A stretch of 19,257 bases of DNA from an uncultured archaeon (GCA_964645535.1 CAZYCQ010000061.1:1-19257); one strand, 5' to 3'; shown: positions 4,676-19,257, counted from the stretch's first letter. Notes: generated from the sequence alone by a model not told the origin. A program made the numbers and translations.

Positions 4676-5410
4676 TTATTCAATTTTTTTACGAATAAGA
4701 CCGAGAACAGGAATTGCAAATAACAATCCAAGTAAGGGGAATGGACTGCCATTTTGAGTAGCATATATGTCAACAGTTGCTCCAGCAGGTGTCTCACCTA
4801 CATCTGCAATAGTCACAGATAACTCGTCATCAGAGTGCCAAGTATGATAGGTCAAAGTGTCTGAACTTTCATGGGCTGCAAAGAAGAATCCATATGTTCC
4901 ACCGATTTCCCAATTGTGGTCTTGTCCAGCTGTATCATCAGAAGCTAGAGGGAAACGAAGTTCAACGGTAGTAATTCCATTTTCTTCAGTTCCAGCAACT
5001 TCGATCGGAAATTGGGAATCATCCACGATTGGAGGAGTATTTCCAATAGCATGATAGTCTTGTGCGGTTGCAACACCATTTTTAACGGACGAAATCACCA
5101 TATCCGCGCCGGTCATTCCAGCACCAGGTTCGTTCATTCCGAAACCGACCCATCCAGTGAATTCACCCCATAGGGCTATGAAAATGTGGGTTTTGTTGTG
5201 ACCCCAAGCAACATTGAGGAAATAATTTTCGGAATCTAGGTGATCTGCAACCTTGAATGTTGTGGGGTATTCTCCGTCATCAACTTTTCCATCCAGTTTT
5301 GCAGATGCAAAATCACTGTAATAAAGTGTGGTATTAGCTGCATTGCTTGGAAACGTTGAGATCATAAGAATTGTTGCAATAAATGCAGAGAAGAGTAGCC
5401 CTTTTTGCAT
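4676..5410 (-). CDS. Secreted, C-terminally anchored DOMON-domain protein (DOMON-A), putative heme-b binding
   Basis: Signal peptide ending SNA-A, LDG-x4-GEY, the DOMON-like core GWVGFG-x6-GMTGADMV, DYHA, E-NG-T-VE, and a late YH. Tail GSPFP, hydrophobic helix, RKK. Start placed at ATG 5410 (MQKGLL) because it gives a clean signal peptide and has a TATA-like box upstream; the track starts at 5458. Confidence 0.8.
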   Translation of the reverse strand: MQKGLLFSAFIATILMISTFPSNAANTTLYYSDFASAKLDGKVDDGEYPTTFKVADHLDSENYFLNVAWGHNKTHIFIALWGEFTGWVGFGMNEPGAGMTGADMVISSVKNGVATAQDYHAIGNTPPIVDDSQFPIEVAGTEENGITTVELRFPLASDDTAGQDHNWEIGGTYGFFFAAHESSDTLTYHTWHSDDELSVTIADVGETPAGATVDIYATQNGSPFPLLGLLFAIPVLGLIRKKIE

Positions 5411-5434
5411 GTGATCCTTTACTAAAGTAAGCCA

Positions 5435-5441
5435 TATAAAA
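5435..5441 (-). promoter_or_regulatory. Putative archaeal TATA box for DOMON-A
   Basis: TTTTATA on the minus strand about 25-31 bp upstream of ATG 5410, flanked by GCCA...TGGC. Confidence 0.45.
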
Positions 5442-5639
5442 TTTGGCACAGAGACCATGGCATTTTTCCAGCATTCACACAGACATTTTGTAAAATTGAT
5501 AAGAAATAGTTCAATTAAATTGCATATTTCGGGCGACAGGTTATTGAATTGTTATGGATCAAGCTACATTTTCAGGATGTCTTCAAAGGCAAAAGAAAAT
5601 CATAATCAATTGATTTTTTCGTGTGTAAAAGGTGGTCAA

Positions 5640-6950
5640 TTAATTTTTAGTGGATCGGGCAATCAACCAAGTTAGGATGTAGCAGATAAGCGCGAGGAGA
5701 ACGAAAACGACATAACCTCGAGCGTAACCAATGGATCCCATTTGATCAACAAATGCACCTAGTATTGGAGGAATTACAAATCCTCCAAATGCACCAAGAC
5801 CTCCGACCCATCCTGAAGTACCTCCAACAGCATCAGGAACTGCCTTTGGAACCAATTTGAAGACAGCCGCATTCATGATTCCCATACCGACAGCCAGAAT
5901 AACCATTCCAAGGATTGAAAGCCCATATATTTCACTGAAGGTCATAATCAGGGCACCGACAAGAAGAACTGAAATACCTCCGAAAAGGGTTTGAGTTCCA
6001 CCAATTGAATCGGAGATCTTTCCCGCGTATACCCTGACAAGAGAACCAATCACTATGAAAATTCCGTTAAGGATCAATGGAATCCCAAATTTTATGTCAT
6101 CTGCAATCACAATGGGATCTGGGCCATAGAAATCAACCCAATATTTCTTGAACCAAGTTCCCAATGCAATGAAACCACCGAAAGAGGTAAAGTAAAGACT
6201 CACCAATGCCCATGTCTGCCAATGCCTTCCTGATGCTTTCAGACTTTGAATCAGTTTATATTTGGGGAAAAGTTCCTGACCCTTTTCCTTGGCAACCCTG
6301 ATGGCTTCCTCTTTTGAGACACCTTGATTAAGTAATTGGAAGTAGTATGCATCCTTTCCTATTCGGAAATAGATGAAAGTTCCAATTGCAAGGAGAACTA
6401 GCCATAAAAGATATGAATTGGCTACTCCGATTGTTGCAAGAGTGATTGCCATGATGAATGAAAAGATGCCAGGAGCAAGATTTCCAATTCCTGCGTACTT
6501 CCCAAGTGCAGAACCCTGATCTTTTTGTTTGAACCAATATGCAACTTGACTGATACCTACAGAAAATGTAGCGATACCGCAACCTGCCAAGAATCCAAAG
6601 AAAAGGATCAATGGGTACATACCTTTGGTAAGAGTTCCGTTCTCCAATGAGAGCCCAAAGAAATAAAGTCCAGCCATTCCAACTATTGAAAGGACAAGAA
6701 GAACCAAGATGGGCTTTCTACCACCCACATCATCAGTCCAAGCCGAAAATGGGATTCTAAGGAGAGATCCGGAAAGATTGGGCATCGCGACCAAAAGGCC
6801 AGCCAATGTTCCAGAAAGTCCAAGAGCGACGTTGAATTCGGTAGCTGTTGAGCCAAGGGCAACTACAGCGGCAAATCCAATAAAAAAGCCAATAGTTGCA
6901 CCCCAAAGACCTTCATCAGGAGTTCCTTCTAGTTGATATTCTTTTGTCAT
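5640..6950 (-). CDS. narK: NarK-family nitrate/nitrite MFS transporter
   Basis: About 12-TM MFS protein with the two nitrate/nitrite porter arginines (GSLLRIP, GSLVRVYAG), Gly-rich nitrate-signature segments (GKYAGIGNLAP, GWVGGLGAFGGF) and Y-x3-FGGF. Directly downstream of narI. ATG 6950 preferred because it follows AGGTGA; the track gives GTG 6959. Confidence 0.92.
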   Translation of the reverse strand: MTKEYQLEGTPDEGLWGATIGFFIGFAAVVALGSTATEFNVALGLSGTLAGLLVAMPNLSGSLLRIPFSAWTDDVGGRKPILVLLVLSIVGMAGLYFFGLSLENGTLTKGMYPLILFFGFLAGCGIATFSVGISQVAYWFKQKDQGSALGKYAGIGNLAPGIFSFIMAITLATIGVANSYLLWLVLLAIGTFIYFRIGKDAYYFQLLNQGVSKEEAIRVAKEKGQELFPKYKLIQSLKASGRHWQTWALVSLYFTSFGGFIALGTWFKKYWVDFYGPDPIVIADDIKFGIPLILNGIFIVIGSLVRVYAGKISDSIGGTQTLFGGISVLLVGALIMTFSEIYGLSILGMVILAVGMGIMNAAVFKLVPKAVPDAVGGTSGWVGGLGAFGGFVIPPILGAFVDQMGSIGYARGYVVFVLLALICYILTWLIARSTKN

Positions 6951-6959
6951 TTTCATCAC

Positions 6960-7646
6960 CTAATTTCCACGGCTTCTATTCCAGATAACAATCTGGGGAG
7001 TTCGCCATGCATATCGAATTGGATAGAGCATCAGGTGCCCTAATCTTGTGAACGGGATCATGGCAATCAGCACCATTCCATTAACGAAATGCAGATGCAA
7101 AAGCCAGTCAGATCCTGCAAAACCTGCAACAGTAGAATAATTTGGGTTCAGTGTGAACAACGATCTCAACCAAGGAACCATGGTTGAAATAAACCATTGA
7201 GACCCAAATCGATATTTAATTGCGACAGTCATTCCAGTTACGATCTGTGTTGAAAGGTCTCCAAGCACAATCCAATCAGCAGCAGTCGTGACTGCCCGAA
7301 CCCTTTCATTGGTTATTCTACGGTAAATAAGGATAGCCATTCCCAAGATAGAGAATCCTGCAAGAGCCCACCCGGTGTATTCCCAGAATTCCCGATTGGA
7401 ATCTGTAACTAACCTGTTGAATAGATCCGGGAACAAAATCCCTAGAATATGCATGGACAGGATTGCAATAATCGAATAATGCCAAAAATAGGAGCCAAAG
7501 AGAAGTGTTTCCTTGTCTCCTAGAAATTCGGAAGATTGACTGGAGACTGAATATTTGTCGTAGCTAATTCGGTATATCCAGCCGATCACAGCCAATGTGA
7601 TAGCCACATATGGAAAAATAAGGTAAAACAACATGTCTATTGCCAT
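6960..7646 (-). CDS. narI: Respiratory nitrate reductase gamma subunit (di-heme cytochrome b, quinol oxidising)
   Basis: FPYVA, SSQSSEFL, heme-ligand His pairs in WHYSIIAILSMH and HLH...PFTRLGH, and YRR...RVR. AAGGAGG upstream of the start. Confidence 0.95.
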   Translation of the reverse strand: MAIDMLFYLIFPYVAITLAVIGWIYRISYDKYSVSSQSSEFLGDKETLLFGSYFWHYSIIAILSMHILGILFPDLFNRLVTDSNREFWEYTGWALAGFSILGMAILIYRRITNERVRAVTTAADWIVLGDLSTQIVTGMTVAIKYRFGSQWFISTMVPWLRSLFTLNPNYSTVAGFAGSDWLLHLHFVNGMVLIAMIPFTRLGHLMLYPIRYAWRTPQIVIWNRSRGN

Positions 7647-8305
7647 TTTGATTCCTCCTTCTTACCTTTCCTGATCCATTGGTCAATTCCGCTATTGTCA
7701 GGAACAGGTGACGAATGAACAGGTAAGGACACAGTTTCCCGAGTTTGAATTTTGTCCTCAGGTTTGCTCAAATAATTGTAGATGGAAAGGAAAAGAGAAT
7801 AGAACGCTAATCCCGCAGAGACTGATTGGGGTTTGTCCTCAGGCCTTACTTTTGTCCAAATGATGCGTTTCAGAGAGGGGAGCAAAGCACTTTGGACAAT
7901 TTCATGGGTAAGAACTTCGTTTGGAAATTTAGAGACAAAATCAAGAAGCACCGAGAAATGATCAGGAAGTTCCCCTTCAACAGAGTAGCCGTGGGATCTA
8001 AATCTTTTCTTAAGCTCAACAAGAAATGTGCTTCTCAAATAACTTTCGCCAAAGAGATAATAACCGACATAAGGTGAAATGTGGTAGTTCAGTTCAAACA
8101 TTTCCGTATAGTAAGATTGGACATCAATCAGCTCCAATGGACGTATGAACTCAAGAAACGTTTTGAAGTCATCATTGCAATTTAGTTTTTCAAAGCATTT
8201 TTCAGCTACTTCAAGATAATCCTCTTCGGGATAGGCAAGCAGTTTCGCAAATAATGAAACCACTTCGGGATCCAAGGGTTCATACGCTAGAGCCATAATT
8301 TCCAT
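7637..8305 (-). CDS. narJ: Nitrate reductase molybdenum-cofactor assembly chaperone
   Basis: LLAYP, Y-x3-F, YVGYYLFGESYLR and GELPDH motifs. Lies between narH and narI. ATG 8305 follows GGTGAT at the narH stop; the track's 8377 start lies inside narH. Confidence 0.9.
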   Translation of the reverse strand: MEIMALAYEPLDPEVVSLFAKLLAYPEEDYLEVAEKCFEKLNCNDDFKTFLEFIRPLELIDVQSYYTEMFELNYHISPYVGYYLFGESYLRSTFLVELKKRFRSHGYSVEGELPDHFSVLLDFVSKFPNEVLTHEIVQSALLPSLKRIIWTKVRPEDKPQSVSAGLAFYSLFLSIYNYLSKPEDKIQTRETVSLPVHSSPVPDNSGIDQWIRKGKKEESKWQ

Positions 8306-8306
8306 A

Positions 8307-9818
8307 TCACCATCTCCTTTCCGGTACGGATTTCTTCCCGAAACCACCTTCCATCTTCTTGGCGAACGGATCCACAAATCCTTCGATTTGGGCTTCCCTT
8401 GCCAAAGGTGGAATTACGAAGCGTTCCTCCATTGTTGGAAGGCTGGTTAATTGAAAGATCGCTTCTGCCTCAAATGCAGAAGTCTTGCCTTCTTCAAGGG
8501 CAGTGGCAACCTCCTCAGGAGAAATGTCTCCAAGTTCCTGTGCTCTCTTGAAGATACGAACCGCCATGAGTTTCTTGTAGGTTGCATAGATAATATCCTC
8601 GTTCCCTGCGGAGAACAAGGAGGCCATGTACTTGATCGGGATCCTAGCCTTGTCGATATCACTCATTTGAGGCTTGCGATCATTCAAATCTCCTTGTTGA
8701 TCATAAATTCCGTTCCTTTTCCTTCCGATTATAGGGAGAAGTGGAGGAACATAGAACAACATGGGTAAGGTTCGATATTCAGAATGCAAAGGCAAGGCGA
8801 TTTGCCATTGTTTAACGAACTTGTAAATTGGAGAGTTCTGGGCAGCTTCGAGCATTTTCTCATCAATGCCGTTTTCTTTTGCCTTCTTAATGACCTCCGG
8901 ATCAAAGGGATCAAGAATAAGTTCATTTCTTATGCCATCCACCAATTCAGAGTCATCCAAAGCGGCAACCTCAGTTATCTTTTCTGCATCGTACAGAAGA
9001 ACTCCGAGATATCGTATTCTACCGACACAGGAGTGGAAACATGCAGGTGCCTGCCCAGTTTCAAGTCTGGGATAACAGAGAAGGCATTTCTCCGATTTAC
9101 CGGTACTCCAATTGTAGTACACTTTTTTGTAAGGACAACCGGAGATGCACATTCTCCACCCCTTGCAATTATCTTGATTGATCAAGACAATACCATCTTC
9201 ACCCCGTTTGTAAATTGCACCTTGAGGACAGGCTGCAAGACAGGTAGGGTTGACACAGTGATTACAGATTCTTGGAAGGTAGAAGAAAACCAAGCGTTCC
9301 AATTCATTGAGTTGATCCTTTTCCTCCTGACTAAGTCCTTCAAGATTAATGTCGTTCCTTGCATAGAGTTCAGAACCACTGAGATCATCATCCCAACTTG
9401 GACCCGATTTGATGTCAATATATTTCCCAGTTACCCTAGAAATGGGTTTGGCTACTGGTTGATCATTGGACTGTGGAGCTGTGAAAAGGTGCTCATAGTC
9501 ATAGGTCCATGGTTCATAATAGTCATCCATTGTTGGAAGATGGGGATTTCCAAAGATATTCTTACCCAAGGAGCTAAATTTACCGTTAACCTTCAAAAGG
9601 ATCTTGTCACCCTTCTTGATCCAACCACCCTTGTACTTTTCCTGATCTTCCCATTTGTGTGGATAACCAGTACCAGGTTTAGTTTCCACATTATTGAACC
9701 AAGCATATTCGACACCTTTCCTGTCGGTCCAAATATTCTTGCATGAGATGCTGCAGGTGTGGCATCCTATGCATTTATCCAGATGAAATACCATTGCAAT
9801 TTGCGATCGTACGTCCAT
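8307..9818 (-). CDS. narH: Respiratory nitrate reductase beta subunit (Fe-S)
   Basis: LDKCIGCHTCSISCK, PRICNHCVNPTCLAACP, CKGWRMCISGCPY (Trp replacing Cys, the [3Fe-4S] site), KCLLCYPR...CFHSCVGRIRY, LHSEYRTLPM. ATG 9818 follows AGGTGA; the track gives GTG 9827. Confidence 0.97.
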   Translation of the reverse strand: MDVRSQIAMVFHLDKCIGCHTCSISCKNIWTDRKGVEYAWFNNVETKPGTGYPHKWEDQEKYKGGWIKKGDKILLKVNGKFSSLGKNIFGNPHLPTMDDYYEPWTYDYEHLFTAPQSNDQPVAKPISRVTGKYIDIKSGPSWDDDLSGSELYARNDINLEGLSQEEKDQLNELERLVFFYLPRICNHCVNPTCLAACPQGAIYKRGEDGIVLINQDNCKGWRMCISGCPYKKVYYNWSTGKSEKCLLCYPRLETGQAPACFHSCVGRIRYLGVLLYDAEKITEVAALDDSELVDGIRNELILDPFDPEVIKKAKENGIDEKMLEAAQNSPIYKFVKQWQIALPLHSEYRTLPMLFYVPPLLPIIGRKRNGIYDQQGDLNDRKPQMSDIDKARIPIKYMASLFSAGNEDIIYATYKKLMAVRIFKRAQELGDISPEEVATALEEGKTSAFEAEAIFQLTSLPTMEERFVIPPLAREAQIEGFVDPFAKKMEGGFGKKSVPERRW

Positions 9819-9827
9819 TTCATTCAC

Positions 9828-12800
9828 CTACCATTCGAGCTTGTTCAGCTTCTTGACCAAGACAAAAGTGTCTCGGTTCACGCCTACCGGACCCCAATAA
9901 TTGAAGCCGTAGGTCCATTGTGCATAACCTCCTGCCAAAAGGAGAGGATTCAGCTTGACCCGTGTCAGACTGTTGTGTCCACCACCTCTTTTTCCACGTT
10001 CTTCAGATTTGGGAACAGAAACCGTTCTTTCAGGAGAGTGATAGATCCAGCAGGTTCCTCTCGGAATTCTGGAACTTACAATAATCCTGGTCACTACCAC
10101 ACCATTGTCATTGATAACTTCAACCCAATCATTGTCTTCTACACCAATTTTTTTGGCATCATCTGGATGAATCCAAGCGGGATAGCAACCTCTACTCAAT
10201 TCCTGCATTCTCAGGTTATCACCATAGGTGGAATGGATGTGCCATTTGCCGTGGGGGGTGATATAGTTCAGCAGGACACTCTTTTCTGGGGAAGTATTAT
10301 CTACATCACCAGTGGCCTTAGGTACCAATTTTGGCTTGAACGTGGGGAATTGTTCACCAAAATCGACATAGAGAGGATGATCAAGATAAAGATGCTGTCG
10401 ACCACTTAAAGTACGCCATGGGACATATTTCTCAACATTTTGGGCATAACCTGTATAAGCCCTTCCATTATTGACAATTCCAGACCAGAAAGGTGAAGTC
10501 AGTATTCTCCGAGGCTGTGTTTTGAGATCTTCAAAGGTATAACGGATACTACGGGTATCATCAGCTAAATCAGACAATCCAGTCAGACCAGTTTTGGCTT
10601 CGAGAGTTTTGAAGGCCCGGTATGCCAATTCACCATTGGATTCGGGAGCGAGAGCCAAGATCAGATTTATGGCATCCAAGGCATCCTCCAATCTCGGATA
10701 ACGTTTACCACCCCATTCAATGGCTCTCATGTGTTTTGGATCTGGTGAACGAGTGGTTGGAAGACTGGCCAATTCATCATAAATATCCTTGATATCAAAA
10801 CGGATACCATGAGCACCCAATCCATTTTCCCTTGCTTTTGGACCATATGAAATAAACCTGTTGTAAAGATCGACATAATTCCTTTCAGTAATCGCAAGAT
10901 GGAAACCAGTCTTCCCGGGAATATAATCAATGTCATCATATTTCCAATCTTGGAAGGTGGGTTGTGACAATTCATCTGGGCTATCATGAGCCAATGGTTT
11001 GGTCACGATATCCTTGACCGGTTCAGGCAGATATTCTTTTGCCAGTTCACTCACTTTCTTGGCAAAGCTCTTGAAAATATCCCAATCAGATCTGGCTTCC
11101 CAAGCAGGAGGTGTGGCCATCCCCAATGGATGAACAAATGAATGCATATCTGTGGTGTTGAGATCATTCTTTTCATACCACATTGCAGTTGGAAGCACAA
11201 TATCGGAATAGAGAGCGGAAGTATCCATTCTGAAGTTAATGTCAACAACCAAATCCATCTTGCCCCTTGGGGCTGGCTCCCTGAATTCAACATCCTTAAG
11301 GTGATCCTTGGCTTCTTCATCCTTGATGGAATTATCATGAGTGCCCAAATAATGCCTCAAGAAATATTCATGTCCCTTGGCACTGGACATCAATGCATTG
11401 CCTCTCCAGATGAAAAAGACCCTTGGCCAATTCTCAGGAGCATCTGGATCCTCAACAGAAAGTTTGAGCTCTCCAGAATTAATCTTTTCAGCCACATATT
11501 TCTTGATTCCATCGTCATCGGTATATCCAGCTGCCTTTGCTTCTTCAATAATCTTCAATGGGCTTTTGTTGAACTGGGGATAGAATGGCATCCATCCATT
11601 TCTTACAGCACGTGCAATGTGATCTGCAACATTTCCCTTTCCATATTTTGTTCCATTGGGGAGAGAGGCATATTCACTGAAGTCCCCTTCATATCTGAAC
11701 TGATCAGAGTGAATATAATGCCAAGTTGGAGTTTGTTGAACCCTTGGAGGTCCGACCCAGTCAGTGGCCATTGCTACAGATAGCCAAGAGGTCATCAGGG
11801 TAAGTTTTTCCTGTCCCACATAATGGTTCAGACCACCACCATTCTTTCCAACACAACCAGTCAGAATCAAGGCAGTTATGGGACCACGGTACATGAGAGA
11901 ATTGTAGTACCAGTGGTTGACACCAGCACCGGTAATGACCATTGATCTACCTTCAGTGTTTTCAGCATTTGTGGCAAATTCTCTGGCAAGTTTGATGACA
12001 GTGTCCCGTCCAATTCCAGTAAATTTCTCTTGCCAAGCCGGAGTGTATGGAGAGGTTTCATCATCGTAATCTGCGGGATACTCGCCGTTCAATCCCCTAG
12101 ACAAGCCGAAATGACCAAAAAGAAGATCCAAGGAAGTAGCGACATAGACAGGACCATCAGGAGTTTCCAATTTTTTGGCAGGGATTCCTCTGATGAATTC
12201 TTTTTTCTCGCCAAATTCAGTGAATTTGACATTGATGACCTCATCATGATCTTCCAAAAGTGTCAATAATGGGTCAATTTCATTACCTTCATGATCTTTA
12301 TTCAGTAAATTCCATTTTCCTTGATCTTCTTTCGCGTGTCTAAATCCAATTGTTCCAATGGGAATTTTTACGTCCTTTGTTTTTTCATCAATTACAAGAA
12401 GTTTCCAATCTCCATTTTCAACATCCTTGTATTTCTCCAATCGATTGGCCCTCAGGAATTGACCAGGGGAATAGACATCCCCATCCTTTCTCAATTCAAC
12501 CAAGAAGGGCGTATCAGTGTATTTTTTAAGATAATCAATGAAATATGGAACTTGCCGGTCAATGTAATATTCCTTCAAAATCACATGATTGACAGCAGCC
12601 CACATTGCATGATCTGTTCCTGCATTAATTGGAATCCACCAGTCTGCAAACTTAGCAGCCATACTGAAATCAGGTGCAACGCAAACAAACTTGGTTCCAA
12701 CATATTTTGCCTCCGAAATGAAGTGCACATCCGGAGTTCGTGTCATGGAAAGATTGGAACCCATTGACACGATATATCTGGCATTGTACCAGTCTGCACT

Positions 12801-13472
12801 TTCCGCGACATCTGTCTGCTCACCCCAAGTTTCAGGGAAAGAATTGGGCAGATCACAATACCAGTCATAGAAACTTAGATTCACCCCACCCAGCAGTTGG
12901 AGGAATCTTGAACCACCTCCGTAGGAAAGGTAACTCATTGCAGGAATGGGAGAGAAGCCGAAAACACGATCTGGACCATATTTCTTGATTGTATAGATCA
13001 CAGAGGTAGCGATTATTTCCAAGGCTTCATCCCATGAGATTCTCTTGAAACCACCCTTGCCGCGAGCTTGTTGATATTGCTTGCGTTTTCTTTCATCTTC
13101 AACAATTGATGCCCAAGCTTCAATCAGGTCTTTATGTTCTCGTTTTGCATTTTTCCAGTACCTGTACAATGTATTGCGAATGTAAGGGTACTTGATTCTA
13201 AGTGGGCTGTAGACATACCATGAGGCAGAAATACCTCTTTGGCATCCACGGGGTTCATATGGGGGAAGTTTTTCTTCTAGGAGTGGATAGTCCGTCGCCT
13301 GCAATTCCCAAGTGATTATTCCGTCTTTAACAAAGACATTCCATGAACATCCACCAGTGCAATTTACACCATGAGTGGATCGGATGACTTTGTCATATTG
13401 CCACCTATTCCTGTAAAATTCTTCCCACTGTCTGTTTTTTGGATCAATTAAATCAGTTATCCAGTTTTTCAT
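9828..13472 (-). CDS. narG: Respiratory nitrate reductase alpha subunit (Mo-bisPGD), no Tat leader
   Basis: 1214 aa. FS0 motif [12 protein letters not shown]...PRGCQRG, Mo-ligand region [56 protein letters not shown]-x-G-x-NRD. GAGGTGA upstream. Confidence 0.98.
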
Positions 13473-13481
13473 GATTTCACC

Positions 13482-14240
13482 TCAGTAAAACTTACCATTC
13501 CTCCAGATGAAAATACCAAGGAGGGTCAAAAATCCCCAAAACAAAATAGGGGACAGATAATCGGTTTCTCCGTTTCCACCCGTTGATCCTCCCAATGCAA
13601 CCGTAGCTTGAGCAGGTGTTTCACCTTGACTCGCAATCTCAACAGTGAATAAATCAGAGTGCCATGTATGATATGTAAGAGTATCACTGCTTTCATGGGC
13701 TGCAAAAAAGAAACCATAGGTTCCTCCCACTTTCCAATTGTGATCTTGACCTTCGGTGTCATCAGAGGTCAAGGGAATAACCATCTCAATGGTTGTTTGG
13801 CCATTTTCTTCCTTACCAGCAGCATCAATAGGAAATTGGTTCGTATCTTGCGTCGGAGGTACATTTCCTGTGGCGTGGTAATCACCAACAGTAACCGTTG
13901 AACCTTCAACTGATGCAATAACCATATCTGAACCTGCCATTCCCTTTCCAGGTTCGTTCATTCCGAAACCGACCCAACCCGTTAATTTCCCCACAATACC
14001 CATGGCAAGGTGGGTTCCATTATGGCTCCAAGAAACAGTAATAAAGACATTCTGTTTATCCAGATGATCAGGGACATCAAATGTTGTTGAATACTCGCCT
14101 TCGTTGATCGTTCCATCCAAATTCAATGAACTAAAATTGTTATAGTATAGTTTTGTATCTGCTGCATTCACCGAGAATGGGACTAGAAATAGCATCATCC
14201 CGATTATGAATGCCCATAAGGTACGAATTGGCACAACCAT
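13482..14240 (-). CDS. Secreted, C-terminally anchored DOMON-domain protein (DOMON-B), first gene of the nar operon, putative heme-b binding
   Basis: Signal peptide ending VNA-A, LDG-x4-GEY, GWVGFG-x6-GMAGSDMV, DYHA, YHTWH, Gly-rich linker and C-terminal TM helix. Stop codon lies 9 bp before the narG ATG. Clear paralog of 4676..5410. Confidence 0.82.
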   Translation of the reverse strand: MVVPIRTLWAFIIGMMLFLVPFSVNAADTKLYYNNFSSLNLDGTINEGEYSTTFDVPDHLDKQNVFITVSWSHNGTHLAMGIVGKLTGWVGFGMNEPGKGMAGSDMVIASVEGSTVTVGDYHATGNVPPTQDTNQFPIDAAGKEENGQTTIEMVIPLTSDDTEGQDHNWKVGGTYGFFFAAHESSDTLTYHTWHSDLFTVEIASQGETPAQATVALGGSTGGNGETDYLSPILFWGFLTLLGIFIWRNGKFY

Positions 14241-14254
14241 GATTTTGGAAAGTT

Positions 14255-14278
14255 GCGATACTTATTAAAGTATATCGC
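14255..14278 (-). promoter_or_regulatory. Putative nar-operon promoter: TATA-like box inside an inverted repeat
   Basis: GCGATA (14255-14260) N12 TATCGC (14273-14278) encloses TTTAATAA on the minus strand (14269-14262), 22-29 bp upstream of ATG 14240. Confidence 0.5.
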
Positions 14279-15444: not shown

Positions 15445-16188
15445 CTAGTTTCGTCTTCTCCCCGAATGCTTTTTGCTTCGCATCATCATGATAATCATCA
15501 TTCCACCTAAAAAGGGAAGTGACTGCAGCTGTGCAGAACTGGAGGAAATGGAGGCATCACCCCCCCTCAGGACAATAATCCAGCTCAAATGGTAATCGAC
15601 AAAATTTACAGTTCCATTTCCTTCTCCTTCAAAATAGACCACAAAAAGGGCTTTATCAGAATTGTCTACAGGACGAGGTTCGCCTTTCTGGTTAAATCCA
15701 GTTTCATAAAATGGTGTGAAAAACAGTCCATCGATTGTTTCAGTCGAAATTAATTCAATGACGTCAACCATCTCATGTTGATCATTTTTGTACCTGCTTG
15801 CATGCCGATATGTCCGTGAAATGTTGTCTGGCTCCATAACGGATCTATCAGCGGATTCCCACTGTTTTGTGTAGGAAGAAAAATTCGGAGACAAAGGAGG
15901 TGCCTGTTGTTCTATCTGAAACAAAGCGAACGTGAATTTGCCTTGTCCATCAGTTCCATTGATGTGGAACAACAGCTCAAATTCACTTCCGGATGGAACG
16001 ATCATCTGATAGGGGTTTCCTGATTGAACAGAAATTGGATCCATAGGGATTGTATCAGGCCATCCATAATACGGGTTTTCCGGATCATTGATAGGATTGA
16101 CTTTTACAACCGGATCATGAGGAAAAGCCGCTACAGGGACTAGAAGAAAAATCAACGAAAAAATTAAACCAAATTTTTTGTTCTTCAT
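15445..16188 (-). CDS. Hypothetical secreted/surface protein with C-terminal hydrophobic segment and basic tail
   Basis: MKNKK plus a hydrophobic signal peptide. Ser-rich linker, LPFLGGMMIIMMM and RSKKHSGRRRN at the C-terminus. ATG 16188 lies 4 bp after the S8 stop; the track start 16218 overlaps the S8 gene. Confidence 0.7.
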   Translation of the reverse strand: MKNKKFGLIFSLIFLLVPVAAFPHDPVVKVNPINDPENPYYGWPDTIPMDPISVQSGNPYQMIVPSGSEFELLFHINGTDGQGKFTFALFQIEQQAPPLSPNFSSYTKQWESADRSVMEPDNISRTYRHASRYKNDQHEMVDVIELISTETIDGLFFTPFYETGFNQKGEPRPVDNSDKALFVVYFEGEGNGTVNFVDYHLSWIIVLRGGDASISSSSAQLQSLPFLGGMMIIMMMRSKKHSGRRRN

Positions 16189-16192
16189 GATA

Positions 16193-17524
16193 TCACAACC
16201 AATTACCGTTACCTCCACTAGAGAGAGGGTGAATAAAATTTAATCCTTCAGAATAGGCAATATCGAACAGGCGACCTAAATTTATAAATCCTACACCAAG
16301 AAATTGATCAGGATTATTTGGTTGAGAAGAAGCCCGTTCAAGCATTCTGACAAGTAAATTAAGTGAAGGGCTTTCATACCATCCAAATGTTTTATAATGG
16401 CCAAGATTAAATGCATAGATTGCAACTAATGCAGCAGCAGCAAGCATCGGAGCTGCAATACTTGTTCCGCCGATTACAGCGGGGTAGACTCTTCCTTGAA
16501 AATAATAACTCATTAGAGTTATAAAATGTGCAGGCATAGCAAACCTTACTGGTCGGGAAGTGCTTCCCCATGAAGAACATATTATGCGGGCATTTTTCCA
16601 ATCATGGCAATTTGAAATACCATATTCAGAACGTCCACTTAATGATCCTGTACTTGAATAATAGTTTTCGTAGAAAAGATAAGTTCCACCAATTGTCCTC
16701 CATTCGCCCCGATTCTCATGATCAATGGATGAAACAGGGAAGAATTCAGGATAAGAATTGGGAATGCCTCTACTTTCATCTCGGCCTTGATTGCCGATTG
16801 CAGTTACCATAAATATTCCTTTGGAATAAAGACGTTTCACATGTGAATTATAGAAATTTTGTGCACTACTAGGCCATTCAATCGCTGTGACAATTACACC
16901 CACATTTAAACTGTCAATATTTGCTAGTAGAAAATCCCAAAATTTCCCATTTCCAAGCGACAAACCATAATCCGTATCAAAGGTCTTTATATCAACAATT
17001 ATAACTTTTGCTCCTCTTGCAATACTAGCAAGAGCAGAAAGTACCCAAAATGTGTGATCAAAGGTATGTTCTTTATATGCAGTATTATATCCCAACTTCT
17101 TTTCAATATTTGAAAGATAATCAAATGTTTCAGAACCTTGATAGCCATAGGTAACTACTTTTCTATTCGCAACATCCCAGGTCCAATAGGACAAAATATC
17201 TACATAGTAATTATTATCACCACCTATTTGGAGTGATGCCCATTGATCAACGGGTATCCCTTGATCAATCACCATTATAGTCTTTTTGTAGTCACCATCG
17301 TTTGGCACATGATTAAGCCAAGGACTGCAATTAATAAATGATAGGTGAGATGCAGTGCAATCATATACTTTCTCAAGAGGTTCGGGGGATGGAAGAGCTC
17401 CTTCCTTTGCATTACTAGTGCGCAAAACAATTGGTTTATCATCAACTAGATGAGGAAGACCAATCAAATTGCTTGAAAGCACAATACTGACCAACATAAT
17501 TGATTGTAATTTCAGAGTTAGCAT
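16193..17524 (-). CDS. Divergent S8 (subtilisin-like) serine peptidase, probably secreted
   Basis: Catalytic elements in subtilase order: IMVIDQG (Asp), DHTFWV (His), AIGNQG (oxyanion Asn), GGTSIAAP (Ser), and a C-terminal GVGFIN. Hydrophobic N-terminus. Confidence 0.78.
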   Translation of the reverse strand: MLTLKLQSIMLVSIVLSSNLIGLPHLVDDKPIVLRTSNAKEGALPSPEPLEKVYDCTASHLSFINCSPWLNHVPNDGDYKKTIMVIDQGIPVDQWASLQIGGDNNYYVDILSYWTWDVANRKVVTYGYQGSETFDYLSNIEKKLGYNTAYKEHTFDHTFWVLSALASIARGAKVIIVDIKTFDTDYGLSLGNGKFWDFLLANIDSLNVGVIVTAIEWPSSAQNFYNSHVKRLYSKGIFMVTAIGNQGRDESRGIPNSYPEFFPVSSIDHENRGEWRTIGGTYLFYENYYSSTGSLSGRSEYGISNCHDWKNARIICSSWGSTSRPVRFAMPAHFITLMSYYFQGRVYPAVIGGTSIAAPMLAAAALVAIYAFNLGHYKTFGWYESPSLNLLVRMLERASSQPNNPDQFLGVGFINLGRLFDIAYSEGLNFIHPLSSGGNGNWL

Positions 17525-18604: not shown

Positions 18605-19257
18605 ATGAAGATAAAACTACTTTTTTTGATCAAAATGGGGGTATTAGTTAATATTATTCTGATTTCTTTGGTTTCTTTCTCATTGGCAGGGAACAACAAT
18701 TACTCTTTTACAACAAAGAATTCCCTTATATCAAGCCCAGTCAGAGAATTTGAAACAGGGGATACTACACCAATCAGGATTTCTGGCAATGATGACTTCA
18801 GATCCCAAGCTGAGGCCAATGGATGGGCGGGAGATGGGAGCTTAGAGAATCCGTATATTATTGAAGGGTATACTATCGAAGTTCAGGAAACCCATGCAAT
18901 AAGCATCTCAGATACGAATCTTTCTTTTATTGTCCGTGACAATAAAATTTCTGGAATTGTAGCTTATTTTAGTGCTATCCATTTATATAATGTAGTCAAT
19001 GGCATCATTGAAAACAATCAGATAGAAAATTGTGTTGATACAGGAATTGAATTGGAAAATACGAACAACACTATTATTCGATCTAACACGGTTCAGTTCG
19101 GGATGTCAATCGCTGGAGCAGCAGCAATTAAATTAATGAATTCCCATTATAATGAAGTCGTGGGAAATACTATTTTAGATTTTAAATATAATGGGATTAG
19201 TGTTTATCACTCACAAATCAATTGGATTGAAGGTAACAGAATTGAAATTACTAAGCC
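18605..19257 (+). CDS. Partial (runs off the window) secreted right-handed parallel beta-helix protein, NosD/CASH-like
   Basis: Translated by hand; open from ATG 18605 to the window end: MKIKLLFLIKMGVLVNIILISLVSFSLA...PIRISGNDDF...GWAGDGSLENPYIIEGYTI..., then repeats such as AIHLYNVVNGIIENNQI, GIELENTNNTIIRSNTV and GISVYHSQINWIEGNRI. Confidence 0.85.
   Translation, partial: MKIKLLFLIKMGVLVNIILISLVSFSLAGNNNYSFTTKNSLISSPVREFETGDTTPIRISGNDDFRSQAEANGWAGDGSLENPYIIEGYTIEVQETHAISISDTNLSFIVRDNKISGIVAYFSAIHLYNVVNGIIENNQIENCVDTGIELENTNNTIIRSNTVQFGMSIAGAAAIKLMNSHYNEVVGNTILDFKYNGISVYHSQINWIEGNRIEITK

Follow-up and report, generated by a model that had tools for sequence, protein, structure and literature searches.

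A cysteine-free DOMON protein in the NarC position: a candidate haem-b partner of a Thermus-type nitrate reductase in Heimdallarchaeia

Why should an operon for a nitrate reductase that faces the cytoplasm begin with a gene whose product appears to be exported to the other side of the membrane? This question is raised by a 19,257-nt contig from an uncultured archaeon (GCA_964645535.1, CAZYCQ010000061.1:1-19257; hereafter the window), which is the complete contig C61 of a 3.6-Mb metagenome-assembled genome (MAG; G000) that is 89% complete and that belongs to an Asgard archaeon of the class Heimdallarchaeia, Candidatus Heimdallarchaeota. Seven co-oriented genes lie on its minus strand, in the order DOMON-B, narG, narH, narJ, narI, a narK-like gene and DOMON-A, the first of which encodes a cysteine-free DOMON-domain protein. 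It is close to certain that DOMON-B belongs to the nar operon. As for its role there, the reading that we favour by a modest degree is that DOMON-B would join NarGHI as a fourth partner that faces outward and carries haem b, taking the place of the non-homologous NarC, the c-type cytochrome whose gene heads the nar operon of Thermus thermophilus.

DOMON-B (13482..14240; on the minus strand, like the operon features and DOMON-A described below) is 252 aa long and is laid out as a signal, a DOMON beta-sandwich (residues ~29-202), a Gly/Thr-rich linker and a transmembrane (TM) helix (residues 229-249 in the model; 13494-13556). Its N-terminus is signal-like, with MVVPIRTLWAFIIGMMLFLVPFSVNA followed by ADTK and a boundary at VNA/AD, so that residues 1-26 correspond to a Sec signal; its hydrophobic C-terminal helix is followed by a basic tail (WRNGKFY), and its Cys count is zero. 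The protein matches the Pfam DOMON family PF03351 over residues 67-182 with 68.3 bits, against a gathering cut-off of 32.7 (E 9.5e-19). We also considered the C-terminal helix as a cleaved sorting signal, which found no support: no archaeosortase/exosortase (PF09721) was found in the genome by a search with a weak control, positive only in M. jannaschii. The junction with narG (13473..13488) reads ...TTTTAC TGA GGTGAAATC ATG, where a Shine-Dalgarno-like GAGGTGA overlaps the TGA stop of DOMON-B and where the narG ATG (13472) starts 9 bp past that stop. On the other side of the gene, TTTAATAA (14262..14269), a candidate archaeal TATA box, is centred ~26 nt 5' of the DOMON-B ATG, which in our sequence read has no ribosome-binding site ahead of it; we infer that DOMON-B is the leaderless or short-leader first gene of an archaeal operon transcript. 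A similar TTTAATTA is found at an equal distance in another genome (G002), the remaining upstream regions being poorly conserved, and no operator-like repeat shared by the regions upstream of DOMON-A and DOMON-B was found when we looked for one. The original prediction had described a Sec-type signal, a C-terminal TM helix, a lack of Cys, the Met of GMAGSD, a late His in YHTWH and a stop codon that overlaps GAGGTGA 9 bp ahead of narG, and each of these elements was present in our own reading.

The enzyme encoded behind this first gene has the marks of a cytoplasm-facing NarGHI. The genes narG (9828..13472; 1214 aa; TIGR01580, 1476.8 bits, cut-off 1084), narH, for the Fe-S subunit (8307..9827; TIGR01660, 637.9 bits, cut-off 524), and narI, for the dihaem-b membrane subunit (6960..7646; TIGR00351, 117 bits, cut-off 105.6; PF02665, E 5e-53), all pass their NCBIfam equivalog cut-offs. 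No twin-arginine translocation (Tat) signal was read at the N-terminus of NarG, and the histidines H56, H66, H186 and H204 of NarI are invariant among five orthologues (alignment A3), which together indicate that the catalytic subunit faces the cytoplasm. The gene for the NarJ chaperone (7637..8377; PF02613, E 1.8e-9) and the final gene of the operon, a narK-like gene for a nitrate/nitrite transporter of the major facilitator superfamily (5640..6959; TIGR00886, E 1e-39; MFS_1), match their own families below the NCBIfam cut-off. The longest open reading frame for narJ has a TTG start and a 71-nt overlap with narH; since a near-identical public record has a 222-aa narJ product, the real start is probably downstream.

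This enzyme is closest to that of Thermus. Its NarG is 59.6% identical to T. thermophilus NarG, the identity to proteobacterial NarGs being ~49%, and 14 Thermus records (59-60%, full length) were the closest among the 317 plasmid records with a NarG; identities to the Thermus counterparts are 57% for NarH, 36% for NarI and 30% for NarJ. The T. thermophilus operon starts with narC, which encodes a 262-aa c-type cytochrome with a signal peptide, two CxxCH sites (CASCH and CQACH) and a C-terminal TM helix, and which ends 2 bp ahead of narG. Like NarC, DOMON-B is encoded by the first gene of its operon, abutting narG (9 bp versus 2 bp), is of similar size (252 versus 262 aa) and combines a signal peptide, a predicted outward redox domain, a single C-terminal TM helix and a basic tail. 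Unlike NarC with its two haem-c sites, it is a Cys-free DOMON beta-sandwich, and blastp found no similarity between the two proteins. Judged by sequence, the Heimdall operon is then a Thermus-type nar operon in which an unrelated protein occupies the NarC slot. The original prediction had already put DOMON-B in the NarC position, and the analogy turns out stronger than was known at that time, since this NarG is closest to Thermus NarG and since the Thermus narC encodes a protein of much the same length and topology. In Thermus, NarC is required for NarG to mature and attach to the membrane, interacts strongly with NarI in two-hybrid assays and is able to hand electrons to nitrite and nitric oxide (NO) reductases when complex III is repressed, while Nitrobacter has the same layout, run backwards, to oxidise nitrite (PMC7694296). 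These roles of NarC are experimental (PMC7694296), whereas DOMON-B is known here from its sequence and a model.

The link between the DOMON gene and narG is conserved well beyond the window. A DOMON-narG junction with a gap of 9-14 bp and a stop beside a GAGG motif was found in 7 independent contigs, from the window's genome, from four others (G001, G002, G006 and G007) and from metagenome contigs L051 and L052, the five genomes spanning three genera of one family (f1). The arrangement of stop, GAGG and ATG is kept in five species and, among the junction contigs, identity falls as low as 41% for the DOMON protein and 65% for NarG; a junction that recurs in this many contigs shows that the adjacency is not due to chance and bears out the view, already held in the original prediction, that DOMON-B is gene 1 of the operon. 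The flanks of the operon differ (fpg and pst/phoU in G000, a PRC-barrel gene and EamA in G001), indicating that the DOMON gene and nar move together as one block. Only 9 of 400 Asgard genomes carry narG, and the DOMON gene is present in all five of the narG-bearing f1 genomes. Conversely, both narG and a DOMON-B orthologue are missing from a member of the genus of the window's genome (G003; 93% complete, 10 contigs), in which the nearest DOMON is a paralogue linked to fixC. The Heimdall sequences group as a single clade in a NarG tree (98/98), which comprises a DOMON-linked clade (95/96) and a DOMON-less one (100/100), so that a single gain or a single loss accounts for the distribution of the DOMON gene. 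A scan of metagenome contigs with alignment A1 gave three weak partial matches, and tblastn with DOMON-B against 72,556 plasmids gave no match. In G007 (L041:11850-15123), narI is followed by a gene that shares just 25% identity with the narK-like gene of the window: there, a different transporter has taken the last position of the operon while DOMON-narGHJI is kept.

Is DOMON-B then a cytochrome? An AlphaFold2 model built on 35 sequences has a predicted local distance difference test (pLDDT) score of 90.3 and ~11 strands. Foldseek ranked 6jt6 (the cytochrome b domain of pyranose dehydrogenase, PDH) first, followed by 4qi3 (cellobiose dehydrogenase (CDH) cytochrome), 2ivf_C (EbdC of ethylbenzene dehydrogenase), 1d7b (CDH cytochrome) and 7b04 (NxrC), with a probability of 1.00 for these five and for 4zel; dopamine beta-hydroxylase's DOMON domain and modules of the CBM9 type ranked lower, and weak Pfam matches to CDH-cyt and DUF568 were also seen. 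A profile-free exhaustive search gave 628 relatives of DOMON-B, the best 150 of which provided 310 domain instances for an alignment used to estimate ligand conservation. The position of Met101, the Met of GMAGSD (codon 13938..13940), is Met in 290 of 304 aligned domains (95%), the alternatives being Lys (6) and His (5), which are both haem ligands in known systems. That of His191, the first His of YHTWH (codon 13668..13670), is His in 237 of 238 (99.6%). Met101 is furthermore invariant in 11 close orthologues and His191 in alignments A1 and A2. By comparison, the second His of YHTWH (H194) is His in just 49 of 221 domains and the remaining histidines of DOMON-B are kept in 15-35%, leaving Met101 and His191 as the two polar residues that are conserved family-wide. 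With a Met in the loop that follows the GxG strand and a late His, this is the signature expected for Met/His ligation of a haem b, with Met101 and His191 as the proposed axial ligands, and we consider it probable that DOMON-B, as a putative haem protein, binds haem. A second cofactor site made from eight conserved histidines was also considered and was rejected, as only His191 is conserved family-wide. Three others, His73, His77 and His182, are invariant in 11 close nar/fixC-type DOMONs and kept at 15-35% in the wider family; they may serve a function particular to that subfamily, for example by contacting the propionates or forming a second site. The cytochrome-type, outward-facing and membrane-anchored DOMON of the original prediction agrees well with the fold matches to CDH and PDH cytochrome domains and to EbdC and with the conservation of the Met/His pair.

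If DOMON-B is indeed a fourth partner of NarGHI, it would be exported by Sec, anchored via its C-terminal helix and hold one haem b between Met101 and His191, being made from a shared transcript and in translational coupling with a Thermus-type NarGHJI-NarK, in one family of the Heimdallarchaeia. Located beside NarI at the outer face of the membrane, it would connect the distal haem and the quinol site of NarI to outward redox proteins, namely other DOMONs and possibly a CuA oxidase, and so act as an electron branch, either outlet or inlet, and perhaps as an assembly partner too. Whether it docks directly on NarI we regard as evenly balanced; co-folding of NarI with mature DOMON-B and three haems gave a score of 0.01 (mark 0.32), which counts neither for nor against binding. 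In a check for abnormal NarI divergence in the DOMON-bearing operons, NarI was ~35% identical among all clades, Thermus included, and NarH ~60%. At residues ~174-180, in the outer loop between TM4 and TM5 and just before His186, NarI of the DOMON-linked f1 operons has an insertion of 3-5 residues (GFAGSDW) that is absent in the DOMON-less Heimdall NarI and shorter in Thermus NarI; this suggestive feature could possibly be a putative docking element.

What might such an outward-facing haem b exchange electrons with? The genome encodes two haem-copper oxidases, and a coxB-coxA-coxC cluster with a haem O synthase gene lies at G000:C39 (L055:2712-7466), where the CuA motif of CoxB (CAEFCGAGH..M) implies a one-electron donor that faces outward. 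None of the following was found in the genome, which is 89% complete: a protein of the CcmC/CcmF/CcsA family (PF01578), a multihaem CxxCH protein or a cytochrome b of a bc complex (PF00033). Since neither PF01578 nor PF00033 was found and since CoxB nevertheless has a CuA motif, a carrier other than a c-type cytochrome appears to be needed.

Other DOMON proteins of these genomes stand beside respiratory modules as well. A third DOMON protein of the window's genome (394 aa) directly precedes a 4Fe-4S protein and an NrfD-type membrane protein (G000:C32, L037:6982-10589, minus strand), with tatA/tatC at L037:12009-13349, and two further Heimdall genomes (L035 and L036) contain this DOMON/4Fe-4S/NrfD trio, their Fe-S subunit bearing a Tat signal. 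In known complexes, a pair of a Tat-exported Fe-S protein and NrfD partners a molybdoenzyme or c-type cytochromes. The trio resembles a quinol module of the alternative-complex-III or Psr-like type, with the DOMON in the usual place of the cytochrome c. Another DOMON paralogue, 42-48% identical to DOMON-B, is encoded beside fixC/fixX genes for an electron-transfer-flavoprotein (ETF):quinone oxidoreductase (L007:9947-12424, L031:50-2210 and L034:4375-6678), also in Heimdall genomes that lack nar. Altogether, the lack of a detected cytochrome c maturation gene, the CuA oxidase and the DOMONs beside NrfD, ETF:quinone oxidoreductase and, according to a preprint (10.1101/2024.07.04.601786), coxABC modules suggest that DOMON b-type cytochromes take over the work of c-type cytochromes in this lineage.

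Among the relatives of DOMON-B are also giant proteins (P0008, P0009, P0016 and P0027) with many DOMON repeats, for example 12 stretches in 2531 aa or 19 in 4632 aa, and their aligned repeats retain the Met/His pair; a look-up of the contig for the 12-repeat protein P0008 found none, and P0012, P0024 and P0048 are not nar-linked. Such giants could possibly be haem-b counterparts of multihaem cytochromes. These elements can be assembled into a wider picture, which we hold tentatively and regard as doubtful taken as a whole: the Heimdallarchaeia of this family would run an extracytoplasmic chain without c-type cytochromes, based on membrane-tethered b-type DOMONs, in which the DOMON/Tat-FeS/NrfD module would be an alternative-complex-III-like quinol oxidase and NarI-DOMON a second quinol:DOMON branch comparable to NarC-NarI, both feeding the CuA oxidase or drawing on outside donors, and in which the 12-19-repeat giants would be the haem-b counterparts of multihaem wires.

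Several observations weigh against a role of DOMON-B as NarGHI partner. The orthologous nar operons of two other Heimdall families, f4 (n=2 genomes) and f6 (n=2), contain neither a DOMON gene nor any other extra gene, making DOMON-B a lineage-specific add-on that is not essential to this type of Nar. An absence of the adjacency from relatives with orthologous nar operons had been named in the original prediction as a finding that would speak against it, and what we see is divided: it is absent in these four genomes and kept across f1. In the DOMON tree, moreover, the nar-linked sequences from G006, G007 and genus g1 are not resolved as a single clade. A search of the 89%-complete genome gave neither NirK nor a sirohaem nitrite reductase, so that the downstream role known for NarC, which is to feed Nir and Nor, is here without an evident target. 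Finally, the assignment of Met101 and His191 as ligands comes from conservation and fold class. Fold class, together with a rough alignment to Pfam CDH-cyt, suggests that they correspond to Met65 and His163 of CDH; since no homologue turned up when PDB sequences were searched with a profile (best E 0.28, with spurious FABP matches), the equivalence to the Met/His pairs of solved DOMON cytochromes rests on fold class.

The alternative that survives best is that DOMON-B is a haem-b carrier that is co-expressed with nar and works independently of NarI, as one of a pool of tethered DOMONs that serve the NrfD/FeS/DOMON module, the oxidase and others, and that it is induced together with nitrate respiration to remodel the chain. 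The DOMON family is expanded in these genomes and tied to several respiratory modules, and the f4 and f6 operons show that NarGHI can do without such a subunit. Consistent with this alternative too, a near copy exists outside the operon: DOMON-A (4676..5458; PF03351, E 5e-17) is 60% identical to DOMON-B and lies 181-230 bp downstream of narK, a gap that makes a promoter of its own probable. Its start is likely the internal Met at 5410, giving 244 aa. It falls inside the genus-level nar-linked DOMON clade of the tree and is therefore a recent duplicate; it is found in the near-identical record and beside phoU in one other genome, and is absent at that position in G001 and G002. However, the position of a free carrier's gene would be expected to drift, whereas the DOMON gene stays gene 1, at a spacing of the translational-coupling type, while NarG diverges down to 65% identity, and in G003 DOMON-B was lost along with nar. 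We regard an independent carrier as unlikely.

Much less probable still is that the enzyme runs in the nitrite-oxidising direction, as does the Nitrobacter-type nitrite oxidoreductase with its NarC-like cytochrome, or as a quinol:DOMON oxidoreductase, with DOMON-B as the electron exit from NarI to the CuA oxidase in replacement of a bc complex. The presence of the CuA oxidase and the failure to find a complex III cytochrome b or a cytochrome c maturation gene would fit this, and so would the fact that known haem-b DOMON potentials are above that of the distal haem of NarI. Thermus NarC/NarI can also substitute for complex III, and Nitrobacter has the same architecture in reverse (PMC7694296). 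Nevertheless, a bc complex may have been missed in a genome that is 89% complete, the separate DOMON/FeS/NrfD module could already fill this role, and NarG scores as an ordinary narG equivalog. A non-redox DOMON-B, being a surface ligand-binding (sugar, CBM9-like) or cell-envelope module, or else a haem protein binding or buffering the nitrite or NO that NarK releases, is equally improbable: the DOMON/CBM9 fold does have sugar-binding and non-haem members, with CBM9 and the dopamine beta-hydroxylase DOMON among the fold matches, and nitrite export is expected because no nitrite reductase was found, but the Met/His pair of cytochrome-type DOMONs is near-universal in the subfamily, cytochrome domains are the best fold matches and paralogues adjoin quinone-linked redox genes.

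Further observations fit the assignment of the host. GCA_003696825.1 contains the same cluster with a protein identity of 99.6-100%, a gene for CDP-archaeol synthase is among the neighbours in related contigs, and frames with the size of a fused coxA-coxC occur in family f1, which fits what a preprint reports for Kariarchaeaceae (10.1101/2024.07.04.601786). Elsewhere in the window (15445-17524, minus strand), a gene for a 257-aa protein without family match overlaps by 26 nt the upstream gene for a subtilase-like protein (Peptidase_S8). At 18605-19255, a NosD-like, right-handed beta-helix protein runs past the end of the contig; this is probably a surface beta-helix protein of a generic kind, giving no evidence for nitrous-oxide reduction.

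NarGHI ranks among the most familiar respiratory enzymes and, to our knowledge, its standard picture includes no extra redox subunit besides Thermus NarC. Finding the NarC slot occupied by a conserved, unrelated protein suggests that placing an outward-facing cytochrome on NarI is a solution that recurs, and that a host without cytochrome c biogenesis can fill this need with a haem-b DOMON. No known archaea are more closely related to eukaryotes than Heimdallarchaeia, whose respiratory chains serve to infer the metabolism of the eukaryotic ancestor; eukaryotes are otherwise the best-known source of DOMON cytochromes. A single small soluble domain plus two point mutants would suffice for a direct test of the hypothesis.

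How does DOMON-B compare with other known DOMON systems? EbdC, SerC, DdhC, NxrC and the archaeal pNar Orf7 are haem-b gamma subunits of type II dimethyl sulfoxide (DMSO)-reductase-family enzymes (EB_dh; 2IVF chain C, 7B04). DOMON-B shares their beta-sandwich, 2ivf_C and 7b04 being in the top five of its fold matches, and the EbdC/NxrC type is a subunit with one haem b that assists electron transfer by a NarG-family molybdoenzyme, as is proposed for DOMON-B. Subunits of the EbdC/SerC type are, however, soluble and serve a Tat-exported, outward-facing alpha-beta enzyme without NarI, whereas DOMON-B is TM-anchored and its enzyme faces the cytoplasm and has NarI; furthermore, DOMON-B does not match EB_dh (PF09459) at E <= 0.01, its match being PF03351. 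The cytochrome domains of fungal CDH and pyranose dehydrogenase (PF16010; 1D7B, 4QI3, 6JT6) and the plant AIR12/CYBDOM proteins are extracytoplasmic haem-b carriers with Met/His ligation. CDH and PDH domains are the best structural matches of DOMON-B, but these systems are eukaryotic, fused or tethered to flavin/pyrroloquinoline quinone (PQQ) dehydrogenases or to cytochrome b561, and unconnected with nitrate respiration. Closest in host is a preprint that describes narGHJ in deep-sea and hot-spring Heimdall MAGs and 'putatively electron-transferring' DOMON proteins that adjoin coxABC in Hodarchaeales and Kariarchaeaceae (10.1101/2024.07.04.601786). The retrieved passages of the preprint tie DOMON proteins to coxABC and not to nar, and no member of the DOMON-B subfamily was found near COX1 in 12 genomes of family f1. 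The original prediction knew of no described system with this combination, and a full-text literature search likewise turned up no description of a DOMON heading a cytoplasm-facing nar operon. The NarGHI operon and the idea of an extra cytochrome of the NarC type are thus known, and what is probably new is that, in Asgard archaea, this role would fall to a DOMON without Cys.

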